Below are positions 12,616 through 28,798 of a stretch of DNA of 64,000 bases, in pieces. How positions within the stretch are numbered: position 1 is the stretch's first letter; each line of letters starts with the position of its first letter. Origin of the DNA: a virus (taxonomy: Duplodnaviria > Caudoviricetes). The position numbers and the translations under genes are program-made. Where the stretch lies: IMG/VR virus record IMGVR_UViG_3300014203_000001, positions 96,001 to 160,000 of that record, one strand, 5' to 3'. Below the pieces are notes generated by a model that worked only from the letters and a program-made list of their open reading frames with translations, was not told where the DNA came from and ran no database searches.

Positions 12616-12698
12616 TTTAATTCCCCCTCTTCTTTTATTCTAAAGTCAATATTCATTTAAAATCTTATATCCTGGGTAGCATACAATTAGATATAGTA

Positions 12699-19428: not shown

Positions 19429-19653
19429 CTATATAGCTATTCCTTTATCATACTTATGCTTATCATAGTATCTAATATTTAACCTATCTCTACGATACCA
19501 ATTGGTTTTGTCCTCAATTAACTTGTATATCTGTCTATGTCTGCTATTACCAGGTTTGTGCATATAGCATACTTCTCCGCATCTTGGATAAAGATTATAC
19601 TCGTCAAAATCGTTTATTCCATATAGTTCTTTTCTACTTGGCAATGTTATCAT
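19429..19653 (-). CDS. Hypothetical protein
   Basis: GGGGAGGTG RBS before ATG 19653; flanked by perfect palindromes 19419-19446 and 19697-19732. Confidence 0.65.
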   Translation of the reverse strand: MITLPSRKELYGINDFDEYNLYPRCGEVCYMHKPGNSRHRQIYKLIEDKTNWYRRDRLNIRYYDKHKYDKGIAI

Positions 19654-19696
19654 ATCTTCACCTCCCCTAATCAATAGTAATTATTTGATAAAAATA

Positions 19697-19732
19697 AATA
19701 TAGAGGTATACCAATTGGTATACCTCTATATT
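19697..19732. repeat. Perfect 36-bp palindrome (GAGGTATA family)
   Basis: AATATAGAGGTATACCAATTGGTATACCTCTATATT. Confidence 0.9.
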
Positions 19733-19739
19733 AATAGGA

Positions 19740-19925
19740 TTATAATAAGAATAATGCTACTAAGGTTGCATATCCTACTAATAGGTATGCTATTCCTTTT
19801 AATACAATAACTGAATCTTCTTTAGTCCAGTTTTCTTTGATATACTTGGCTCCGTAAAATACACCTAAAAGTGATATTACTATTACCTCTACAATATCTG
19901 ATACTAATGCTGATACTATTCCCAT
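19740..19925 (-). CDS. Small 2-TM membrane protein (early)
   Basis: Two hydrophobic helices, AGGAG RBS, early motif at 19954-19969. Confidence 0.7.
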   Translation of the reverse strand: MGIVSALVSDIVEVIVISLLGVFYGAKYIKENWTKEDSVIVLKGIAYLLVGYATLVALFLL

Positions 19926-19980
19926 AGTAAAACAACTCCTTTTATATTATACTTCATCTATATAATATATAACCTAAATT

Positions 19981-20505
19981 TATAACTAATGCATATTTAC
20001 AATACTGTAGATATATAAATAATAAGTTATATAATACAGTAAGCATACCAGATACTATTATAGTATCTGGTATTATATTAATTCTTCTATTCTTTATTAA
20101 TCATGTCTATTTATCTTAATTTTGATCCCCCTTACGAATATGTAGTACTTTTAGAAATTAATTTGATAATTTTATACGTATCTTAACTTTCTCTATTATT
20201 AGTATACTAATAATAGAGAAAACAGTAAAATAGAGAGAAGACTATAGTCTTCTCTCTAATCATATTCATCCTCTATTTCTCCTACCAAAATCCCCTCTAT
20301 TGATATGTAATTGTTTTAGTTTTTAATTTGTATTTCTCAGTAACATAGATAATTTCCTATATAAACAAGTATCTAATATAGGAAAAGACAGTATAATTAC
20401 AGATAATCAATGATTATCTGTTCTATCTCTAATTAATCATGTCTATTCTCTTATTTCAGATCCCCCTTATGAATATGTCATGCTTTTAGAAATTAATTTG
20501 ATAAA
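19981..20505 (-). repeat. Three tandem ~165-170-bp non-coding units (hairpin-ACAGTA-hairpin-pyrimidine tract-promoter motif-TTTTAGN4TAATTTG)
   Basis: 20097-20169 and 20433-20504 are near-identical; the middle unit is diverged but colinear; late-type motifs at 20133-20144, 20298-20309, 20468-20479. Confidence 0.8.
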
Positions 20506-20519
20506 AATATCAATAGTTA

Positions 20520-20535
20520 TATATTATAAGTATGA
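20520..20535 (+). promoter_or_regulatory. Early-type promoter TATATTAT-N5-TGA
   Basis: TATATTATAAGTATGA. Confidence 0.75.
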
Positions 20536-20568
20536 ATAGTAATAAAATATATAAAGGTGGTATAACTA

Positions 20569-20907
20569 ATGGAAAAGATAGTAGTTACAGTGGAGAATAT
20601 TAAGGAGGTATTTGATAAGATTAAGTCGTTACAATCTCCTAAAAAAGACATTGAATTAGAATATGGAATAGTAGATATTGCTAATGTATTTACAACTACT
20701 GAATGTAGTTGTAAGTTAAAAGAGTACAAGGTTGGAATATATAATTATATCAAATACAACCAATCAAATGTTAAAATCGAGATAAACTTCGACCTAGGAA
20801 CTAATATAATATTTCCAGGAATGGTTATAGTATTTGAAAAGGATTCATTCTACATATATTCAGATATAAAACTTCCAGTTATATCTCAAAGGTTTACTAT
20901 TAAATAA
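20569..20907 (+). CDS. Hypothetical early protein, likely paralog of 21210..21704
   Basis: N-term IVVTVENIKEV vs IILTTENTKSV; C-term VIVFEKDSFYIY vs LVIFDDVLFIY. Confidence 0.75.
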   Translation: MEKIVVTVENIKEVFDKIKSLQSPKKDIELEYGIVDIANVFTTTECSCKLKEYKVGIYNYIKYNQSNVKIEINFDLGTNIIFPGMVIVFEKDSFYIYSDIKLPVISQRFTIK

Positions 20908-20909
20908 AA

Positions 20910-21121
20910 GACACAATATATGCAGTAGTACTAAATTGTACTACTGCATATATCAGTGTAAAAAGGATGTAATAGTATATCAAAATGTTATTTTACTAGA
21001 TCGCCCAAATCTAATAAAATAATCAGAAGTAATCAAAAGGGAAGGTATTGTGTGCGAAGCAATACCTTCTATATATGGGGATAATAAGAGGAGAGAGTTA
21101 GCTGCTTGCATAACTAACTTT
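20910..21121 (-). ncRNA. Candidate structured small RNA with multiple anti-Shine-Dalgarno tracts
   Basis: GACA-N6-TA motif at 21121-21132; hairpins 21096-21119, 21041-21069, 20988-21022 (mismatches become G-U only on minus); terminal 16-bp hairpin 20916-20953; no ORF. Confidence 0.55.
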
Positions 21122-21209
21122 ACATATATGTCTATCAGTTATTATTTTTTATAAATATATATTATATAGGTGAGCAATAAATATATTGCATCATAAGGAG
21201 GAATTAATT

Positions 21210-21704
21210 ATGGATATGATTATTTTAACTACAGAAAACACGAAGAGTGTTAAAGAGAAATTAATAAAGTTTTTAGGTAATAGTGACTATTGCACTTATA
21301 TGAAAGGAATGAGAGGACCAGCTAAATTAAATAGAAAAGAAGCTTTTTGTGGATGTGATTTTAATAGAGTTGCTATTTTGAAAGGTTTTAAAATATGTGG
21401 CAATATGGAACTTTGTGATGCTATAGATGATAAATTTCAGTATACTACAGCTGCTACTGGAATCGATATATGTTTATCGCATGGGTTAATCAATATACCA
21501 ATCAATACAACGCTAGTTATTTTTGATGATGTGTTATTTATATACTATGATAAGACATTAGGGGAACAATGCGCTAGAATCAGTTTACGTAATGACGAAG
21601 AAGTTAATGCAGATAAGGATGAATTTGGTAAGTATATTATAGAAGAGATCAAAGAAATTACTGTTAAAACAAACCCGATGCGTAAACTTAGAACTGACAA
21701 ATAA
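21210..21704 (+). CDS. Hypothetical early protein
   Basis: AGGAGG RBS before ATG 21210; early motif 21158-21173. Confidence 0.8.
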   Translation: MDMIILTTENTKSVKEKLIKFLGNSDYCTYMKGMRGPAKLNRKEAFCGCDFNRVAILKGFKICGNMELCDAIDDKFQYTTAATGIDICLSHGLINIPINTTLVIFDDVLFIYYDKTLGEQCARISLRNDEEVNADKDEFGKYIIEEIKEITVKTNPMRKLRTDK

Positions 21705-28102: not shown

Positions 28103-28798
28103 ATGTTAGCATTTTTCAATGCGGTGAATACATACACCGACGCATCAATAGTAAAAGATCCAGAGGGTAATGGGTTTATAACCTGTGCTGGATTCGTAAC
28201 TGTATTTCATGGGGAAATCATAGATAGTGGCACGCAAATAGTTAGTGAAGCCACCAATAACTACGGGGAAATTATGGCGATTTATATGGGTATTCAAAGT
28301 TTGTTAAAGTTTAAAGATTATGACACATTTCTTAATCTATTCTCAGATTCAAGAATCTCTGTATTGGGATTGAGAGAATGGATATATTCATGGGTGAAGA
28401 ATATGCACCCCGAAACTTATATCTTAGTCAATTCTAGTGGAACTGAGGTTATGAACCAAGAGGTGTTTTGTAACATTGTAAATTACATCGTACAGAATAA
28501 TACACACTTATCTCTGTATCATCAGAGAGGGCATCAAGATCCAACAAATGTCAAAGATATGGAGGTTGTACGGGAATCGTTCCTATCTCAGAACAATGTC
28601 GCTCTGCCAGACGATATTATCAGAGAGATTTGCTACTATAATAACATGGTAGATGAAATGACAAGAAATATTTTATTAGAATCGCTCGAGTCGTCAATAT
28701 TCAATAAAGCTAAATACCGCAGACCAAAGATAATAGCTGCAAGAAGAGTATTAAACTGGAATATGTTAGGAAAATATAAGGAATTAATAGGAGGATAA
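28103..28798 (+). CDS. rnhA: Ribonuclease HI
   Basis: YTDAS, TNNYGEIMAI, SDS, W..W, HQRGH, N..VD catalytic motifs; early motif 28007-28022. Confidence 0.85.
   Translation: MLAFFNAVNTYTDASIVKDPEGNGFITCAGFVTVFHGEIIDSGTQIVSEATNNYGEIMAIYMGIQSLLKFKDYDTFLNLFSDSRISVLGLREWIYSWVKNMHPETYILVNSSGTEVMNQEVFCNIVNYIVQNNTHLSLYHQRGHQDPTNVKDMEVVRESFLSQNNVALPDDIIREICYYNNMVDEMTRNILLESLESSIFNKAKYRRPKIIAARRVLNWNMLGKYKELIGG

Follow-up and report, generated by a model that had tools for sequence, protein, structure and literature searches.

Late promoters of the jumbo phage AR9 conform to AACA-N6-TA/G, with the final base as the transcription start site, and 17 of them deviate in bases or spacing (PMC5312081). AR9 genes that are expressed continuously carry an early and a late promoter in tandem (PMC5312081). 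The locus described here is an array of three repeated late-promoter units in a window of 64,000 nt (by which we mean the whole stretch of DNA that was analyzed), which spans bases 96001-160000 of a virus record of 245.7 kb that is complete and has direct terminal repeats. A 1488-aa protein encoded at 12726-17192 matches the RNAP beta subunits of the Bacillus phages Goe21 and PBS1, the Yersinia phage phiR1-37, and Staphylococcus jumbo phages at ~26-32% identity, and that of AR9 at ~29%; the phage thus encodes an AR9/phiKZ-type multisubunit RNAP. Because of this match, we assign it as a distant AR9/PBS1-like jumbo phage with its own multisubunit RNAPs. Its host is taken to be a low-GC Gram-positive bacterium, and its possession of RNase J is assumed by analogy with the nearest cultured relatives, which infect Bacillus, Listeria, and Staphylococcus. 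A blastn search of cultured phages with 3 kb gave no match, and no tRNA or tmRNA genes were found.

The locus resembles AR9 in a motif of the AACA-N6-TA/G type with the last base as the predicted start, and in the tandem arrangement of a late promoter with an early promoter of the TATATATTAT-N6-G type (PMC5312081). A phage-encoded split multisubunit RNAP, represented here by the beta-like gene, is likewise common to both. The array differs from AR9 in having three (possibly four) late promoters in a row with hairpins between promoters and gene, in the first motif base, which is not A in three window copies, and in an extra 17-nt upstream element confined to the array.

The STAB-SD, a 5′ mRNA stabilizer of Bacillus thuringiensis cry3A, was reportedly described by Agaisse and Lereclus in 1996. 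This SD near the 5′ end of the cry3A mRNA does not initiate translation, and the 30S subunit bound to it blocks RNase J1 (PMC4113751). As in cry3A, the element considered here lies ~100-200 nt upstream of the real start codon. In contrast to cry3A, the 5′ end is a predicted primary start and not a processed end, the element is phage-borne and triplicated, and stabilization, 30S binding, and a host RNase J are putative. LhrC1-5 of Listeria are multicopy tandem small RNAs with C-rich anti-SD loops; as in LhrC1-5, several sibling units follow one another, every one with a promoter and a 3′ hairpin of its own, whereas the units of this phage have the opposite, SD-like purine-rich 5′ end and match no Rfam family. 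A further comparison is with transcription-primed origins, for which the primary origin of T7 (tandem phi1.1A/B promoters and an AT-rich stretch), T4 ori(uvsY) and ori(34), and ColE1 RNA II are parallels. The array has in common with them tandem promoters for a phage polymerase, located in a non-coding spacer rich in AT, and a transcript whose G cluster and bias toward purines would favor RNA:DNA hybrids; it differs in that third-position skew lends no support here and in that the relatives have a single copy.

Layout and promoters of the array

An earlier note on this DNA had proposed three units on the minus strand at 19981-20505, spaced 165 and 170 nt and lying between divergent early promoters. 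A 41-nt block indeed recurs three times at that spacing (units U1, U2, and U3; Table 1), and TATATATTAT-N6-G stands at both borders. This motif agrees with the early promoter consensus of AR9 (PMC5312081); of its 51 genome copies, 45 are intergenic. Within the array, U1 and U3 are 86% alike over 59 nt and 80% alike over the following 35 nt, up to the first hairpin. The spacer at 19926-20568 ranks second in size among the ORF-free gaps of the genome and first among the internal ones, and its GC content of 22.6% (23.8% in the array), against an intergenic mean of 28.5%, is the lowest among the 15 largest gaps listed. Palindromes, at four in 525 nt, are not denser than the intergenic norm of ~1 per 240 nt. 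What sets the locus apart is the repetition of the promoter block and how large its ORF-free spacer is, not palindrome density. To the right of the array, the genes at 20569-20907 and 21186-21704 each have an early promoter directly upstream.

Table 1. Features of the array and its borders (positions in the window; U, unit).
Feature	Position	Strand	Details
Early promoter, right border	20518-20534	+	TATATATTAT-N6-G; promoter of 112-aa plus-strand gene at 20569-20907
U1 conserved block	20460-20504	-	17-nt element 20500-20484; late 12-mer 20479-20468; SD-like G-run 20467-20460
U1 purine-rich leader	20422-20468	-	73% purine over first 45 nt; contains mini-ORF
U1 mini-ORF	20440-20429	-	3 codons
U1 hairpin 1	20399-20421	-	Perfect palindrome; -9.7 kcal/mol; 4 T in 10-nt tail; weak terminator
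U1 TACTGT and weak hairpin 2	20351-20393	-	TACTGT 20393-20388; hairpin ~20351-20384
U2 conserved block	20290-20330	-	17-nt element 20330-20314; late 12-mer 20309-20298; then SD-like G-run
U2 ORF	20207-20269	-	20 codons, hydrophobic, own SD; passes through hairpin 1
U2 hairpin 1	20231-20258	-	Perfect 28-nt palindrome; -17.3 kcal/mol; 7 T in 10-nt tail
U2 TACTGT and hairpin 2	20188-20227	-	TACTGT 20227-20222; perfect 34-nt palindrome 20188-20221; -15.9 kcal/mol; T-poor tail
U3 conserved block	20125-20165	-	17-nt element 20165-20149; late 12-mer 20144-20133; then SD-like G-run
U3 purine-rich leader	20074-20133	-	Contains mini-ORF
U3 mini-ORF	20104-20087	-	5 codons
U3 hairpin 1	20045-20073	-	Perfect palindrome; -16.1 kcal/mol; T-poor tail
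U3 TACTGT and weak hairpin 2	19998-20041	-	TACTGT 20041-20036; hairpin ~20005-20041; fourth late-like 12-mer in 3′ arm
Early promoter, left border	19955-19971	-	TATATATTAT-N6-G; promoter of 61-aa gene
61-aa gene	19740-19925	-	Downstream of array, same orientation; two hydrophobic segments judged by eye
Palindromic terminator of 61-aa transcription unit	19697-19732	-	

Each unit had been described as carrying CAAATTA-N4-CTAAAA, regarded as a late-type motif. The sequence is present on the minus strand of all three units and occurs nowhere else in the 245.7-kb genome; it is thus an array-only 17-nt element that represents no general promoter class, whereas the late-type part of the units is ACA-N6-TA. 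The late-type 12-mers end exactly at the starts that had been predicted (20468, 20298, and 20133), which remain predictions. The first base of the motif is G, T, and T in U1, U2, and U3, not the consensus A, and is A in all five relatives described below. In this genome, 23% of AACA-N6-TA copies are intergenic vs. 7% for controls with N5 or N7 spacing, and the intergenic copies mostly lie 13-27 nt ahead of a start codon, with an SD right after the TA. The units show ACA-N6-TA and then a G-run like real late genes, but the start codon is absent at the expected site. The 6-nt spacer and the TA are found in all eight copies known from this phage and its relatives, and the spacing is specific (N6 vs. 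N5/N7); a late-type promoter motif in the units appears credible.

The palindromic fourth late-promoter-like 12-mer, at 20009-19998, lies 72 nt before the 61-aa ORF and fits the late-promoter pattern on both strands. Elsewhere in the genome, outside the window, a late 12-mer on the plus strand is immediately followed by a short GC-containing hairpin and a T-run without an ORF (G000:C1:222323-222375), and would be a late transcription unit of ~30 nt. Two further contigs, L138:1-300 and L139:1-350 (ENA ERZ27247361, JGI 3300014206), are identical to the window over U3; both stop within the U2 palindromes and are therefore uninformative on copy number, and L139 begins with a fold-back copy of a hairpin arm, likely an assembly artifact. 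Their identity to the window indicates that the same phage is present in several samples and that the array breaks short-read assemblies.

Leaders and hairpins

In all eight copies, the first 20 nt of the predicted transcripts (+1 to +20) form duplexes of -10.5 to -16.1 kcal/mol with the 16S anti-SD tail, for which a generic Bacillota 3′ sequence was used. The corresponding median duplex energies are -10.2 kcal/mol for 262 gene RBSs and -2.1 kcal/mol for random intergenic 20-mers. On reading the eight copies, ATG, GTG, and TTG are absent 5-10 nt downstream of the G-run in every one; borderline cases are U2, with a TTG 2-3 nt past the G-run, and L007 (one of the relatives), with an ATG 3 nt past it. 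The leaders that follow are true polypurine tracts in the relatives (84-93% purine). The window copies rank 6, 12, and 14 of 137 late starts in purine content, which does not place them above ordinary late mRNA starts. When other polypurine non-coding tracts were sought genome-wide, the top-ranking segments were coding regions or RBSs.

It had been stated that no ORF of more than a few codons follows the ATGs. This holds for U1 and U3, with mini-ORFs of three and five codons, but not for U2, whose 20-codon ORF has a good SD and is nevertheless probably without protein expression. All three share their first seven bases, including the ATG. They are not taken as genes because they are too variable to count as such.

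The two hairpins claimed for each unit were located as four perfect palindromes and two weaker hairpins. Against a reference of 115 gene-end palindromes, with medians of -16.2 kcal/mol and of 5 T in the 10-nt tail, only the first hairpin of U2 looks like a typical terminator of this phage. The second hairpin of U2 and the first of U3 have normal stems and T-poor tails, and ~93-97% of the reference palindromes are stronger than the remaining three. That the six hairpins differ in sequence, as also claimed, needs qualification: the first hairpins of U1 and U3 have their outer 6 bp in common, so not all are unrelated. The same outer 6 bp of the U3 hairpin recur in two relatives, L006 and L131, its inner stem being changed in a compensatory way, and the U1 stem is the same as those of L006 and L131 except for one compensatory pair in L131. 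Over the first hairpins of U1, U3, L006, and L131, 97.5% of cells are paired and both partners have changed in four of ten pairs; they read as one homologous stem kept by compensatory changes. Since the distance between its half-sites varies from 9 to 13 nt, a folded single strand fits better than a double-stranded dimer-binding site.

TACTGT is present in each unit, as had been noted, and comes after the first hairpin in three of three. We considered it as a general terminator-tail signal and rejected the idea, as CTGT after palindromes was seen 7 times vs. 4.4 expected and is not enriched. TGTC is mildly enriched after palindromes.

Relatives and the surrounding locus

Conserved architecture in related phages, to which the earlier note had looked as a check, was found in five uncultured phages, each with one copy of the module at the same locus. 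L006 and L007 are syntenic viral contigs from a thymidylate-kinase search; L131, L132, and L136 came from profile searches with the 241-aa and 61-aa neighbors followed by contig look-ups. Other routes were less productive: neither viral nor metagenome contigs contain the exact unit pattern, the 446-aa and 241-aa neighbors used as single-protein queries brought up no relatives among viral contigs, a profile search of metagenome contigs yielded nothing beyond the L006 contig and one short fragment, and a short pattern from the neighboring RNA was too unspecific (>100 chance loci, with only L006 and L007 real).

Across the eight copies in six phages, the invariant columns are ACA, TA, and one G of the G-run, and the promoter bases are the best conserved. 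The units of L006 and L007 are 84% identical over 99 nt, and the flanking 61-aa and 241-aa proteins of these two phages are only 34-48% identical to those of the window. What comes after the unit varies. In L007, L132, and L136 it has no hairpin and is directly followed by an early promoter and a small membrane-protein gene (61-63 aa), the product of which is homologous to the 61-aa protein of the window. In L131 a hairpin comes after the unit, and an unrelated gene in the same orientation begins 45 nt on, while in L006 the hairpin is followed by a convergent accessory gene. Facing this convergent gene, the L006 unit cannot serve the membrane-protein gene. Judged from these contigs, the clade of AR9-like jumbo phages otherwise carries the module once.

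The accessory genes around the unit (20569-20907 and 21186-21704 in the window, L006:6804-7370, and L131:3004-3558) differ from phage to phage without detectable similarity, and were probably gained or lost as single cassettes. In every relative, the region between the 241-aa gene and the unit is full of further small late units (L131:2240-2830, L132:1000-1900, L133:1290-1757, and, on the minus strand, L006:7640-8050 and L007:8330-8670), each combining an ACATAT-type late promoter and a palindromic terminator with a structured RNA that is often rich in pyrimidines; two such sibling units are present in L132 at a distance of ~240 nt. The locus has the look of a small-RNA island with a changing membership. 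In the same contigs, the RNAP beta-like gene, which is unbroken in the window, is split after ~residue 90 (L006:2-5143 and L007:1036-6330) by an interruption of ~700-840 nt, and PBS1 has an HNH endonuclease gene between the corresponding pieces. An intron or another kind of intervening element, missing from the window phage, is thus suggested for the RNAP beta gene of L006 and L007.

Readings of the module

The array is real, conserved, and triplicated in this phage, and constitutes a putative late transcription module that encodes no protein. It most likely acts as a leader stabilized by its orphan SD, or as a short RNA. More specifically, we favor, with moderate confidence, a conserved late-promoter and orphan-SD leader module in triplicate that makes short non-coding RNAs and probably also allows late read-through into the 61-aa gene. 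The non-virion RNAP would transcribe each copy on the minus strand from its ACA-N6-TA late promoter, as the motif suggests, and the 5′ end of the RNA would be a full-strength SD lacking a start codon within usable distance, followed by a purine-rich, largely unstructured leader and then by the hairpins. By analogy with cry3A, a 30S subunit may dock at this 5′-terminal orphan SD and shield the RNA from 5′-to-3′ decay. Given the terminator strengths, U1 and U2 transcripts would be expected to end mostly at the first hairpin of U2 (~20231), yielding non-coding RNAs of ~70 nt and ~240 nt, and U3, behind weaker T-poor hairpins, would give a short RNA and read partly through into the 61-aa gene. One possible action of the short RNAs in trans is as decoys for pyrimidine-rich anti-SD small RNAs made next door. 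The position of the unit just upstream of an early promoter in L007, L132, and L136, similar to the tandem promoters of AR9, suggests that its ancestral job was to provide a stable late transcript for the membrane-protein gene.

Several observations go against the favored reading. Late 5′ UTRs in this phage are typically 13-30 nt, compared with which a hairpin-bearing leader of 200-540 nt would be out of the ordinary; none of the window copies has A as its first promoter base; and the unit of L006 faces a convergent gene. Furthermore, the favored reading accounts neither for the three copies nor for the TACTGT after every first hairpin.

The earlier note had offered as its fallback an array of short minus-strand RNAs from late promoters, which is compatible with all findings, including the conservation of the promoter columns and the U2 terminator. 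In its strongest form, this would be a stand-alone family of trans-acting small RNAs in three copies whose SD-like 5′ region titrates a pyrimidine-rich partner, either anti-SD-type small RNAs encoded next door or an RNA-binding protein preferring A/G repeats, with the 61-aa gene irrelevant. A promoter, a single-stranded 5′ part, and a hairpin are the typical layout of small RNAs, U2 ends at a canonical terminator, and L006 keeps the unit though it is cut off from the membrane-protein gene; in addition, the locus is crowded in all relatives with other small late units bearing pyrimidine-rich tracts. The leader of U1 pairs with the neighboring RNA, a pyrimidine-rich candidate at 20910-21132, better than 60 of 60 shuffles (z = -2.2). 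However, pairing was not above shuffles for U2 and U3, nor for L006 and L007 with their own neighbors, and the pairing idea was dropped. In three relatives (L007, L132, and L136) the leader continues straight into the gene without a hairpin. Rfam gave no hit at gathering score in the window (only chance-level hits, with E up to 10, in 19600-20900) and none in L131-L133. On balance we consider such a family possible but rather unlikely.

The units could instead be decayed gene cassettes, in which a small late accessory gene lost its ORF but left behind its promoter, RBS, and terminators, the array then having no function. The promoter-SD start is indistinguishable from that of real late genes (e.g., genome 15986, minus strand), unrelated accessory genes turn over at this hotspot from one relative to the next, and the mini-ORFs, short as they are, begin alike. 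Yet decay is difficult to reconcile with conservation at the nucleotide level over six phages whose neighboring proteins have diverged so far, with an orphan SD lacking a start codon in eight of eight copies, or with compensatory changes in the hairpin, and we regard it as improbable.

A replication origin primed by transcription was the leading proposal of the earlier note. Persistent R-loops would arise in the AT-rich spacer from late transcripts that begin with a G cluster and a purine tract, and the phage RNase H (28103-28798) would trim these transcripts into primers. The spacer is large, internal, and low in GC, as described above, and the RNase H gene lies 8 kb from the array; the array also sits at a point of divergent transcription and coincides with a local minimum of cumulative skew, one of three nearly equal ones within 10 kb, and the leaders of the relatives are true polypurine. 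These points notwithstanding, the proposal of a multi-copy origin gained no positive evidence. The GC-skew check that had been suggested did not single out the array, as the global minimum of cumulative GC, AT, and purine skew falls at window position 12672, 7.8 kb away, and skew goes with the orientation of the genes. To the left and to the right of the array alike, genes on the plus strand exceed those on the minus strand in third-position GC skew, a contrast that has the wrong sign on the left arm for a bidirectional origin there (a weak test, t ~2.4), and the best bidirectional-origin scan does not choose the array region. Neither does the purine content of the window leaders exceed that of ordinary late mRNA starts, no origin-binding repeats were recognized, and the relatives have one copy placed as the upstream promoter of a gene. 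We therefore find an R-loop origin at this array doubtful, and hold it equally doubtful that late promoter, G cluster, and polypurine leader together constitute the transcription-primed origin of the clade, multiplied to three sites in this phage. If this is true, no origin has, as far as we know, been pinpointed earlier in a jumbo phage of this kind. As an observation in its own right, third-position GC skew is 0.14-0.20 in plus-strand genes and ~0.09 in minus-strand genes genome-wide, regardless of location, and this weak strand-wide bias would fit replication that proceeds mainly in one direction from the left part of the genome.

Finally, minigenes like lambda bar, in which translated ORFs of 2-5 codons (Met-Ile-Asn-stop and similar) would cause peptidyl-tRNA drop-off and disturb late host translation, seem very improbable: U1 and U3 do have an ATG and an Ile codon with a stop after three or five codons, and mini-ORFs of 1-8 codons were read in the leaders of L007, L131, L132, and L136, but the SD before the mini-ORFs of U1 and U3 is weak, the L006 leader has no ATG, ORF length and position vary widely, and short ORFs easily arise by chance in AT-rich sequence. 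An array of retron-type non-coding RNAs was ruled out by the absence of an RVT_1 match in the complete 245.7-kb genome, with positive controls, and readings as a G-quadruplex or as CsrA/Hfq-type motifs were considered by eye and dropped as unsupported.

The practical gain from this analysis is modest, consisting of a defined RNA element (promoter, orphan SD, and hairpin) and a negative result on the origin hypothesis. If the favored reading of an orphan-SD leader is true, a phage with its own RNAP also exploits host ribosomes to keep its late RNAs alive, and the trick would be a ribosome-binding site without a gene at the extreme 5′ end. The module, conserved in a clade of uncultured jumbo phages, would then also be capable of amplification in tandem, and the locus is a good place to search for phage regulatory RNAs.
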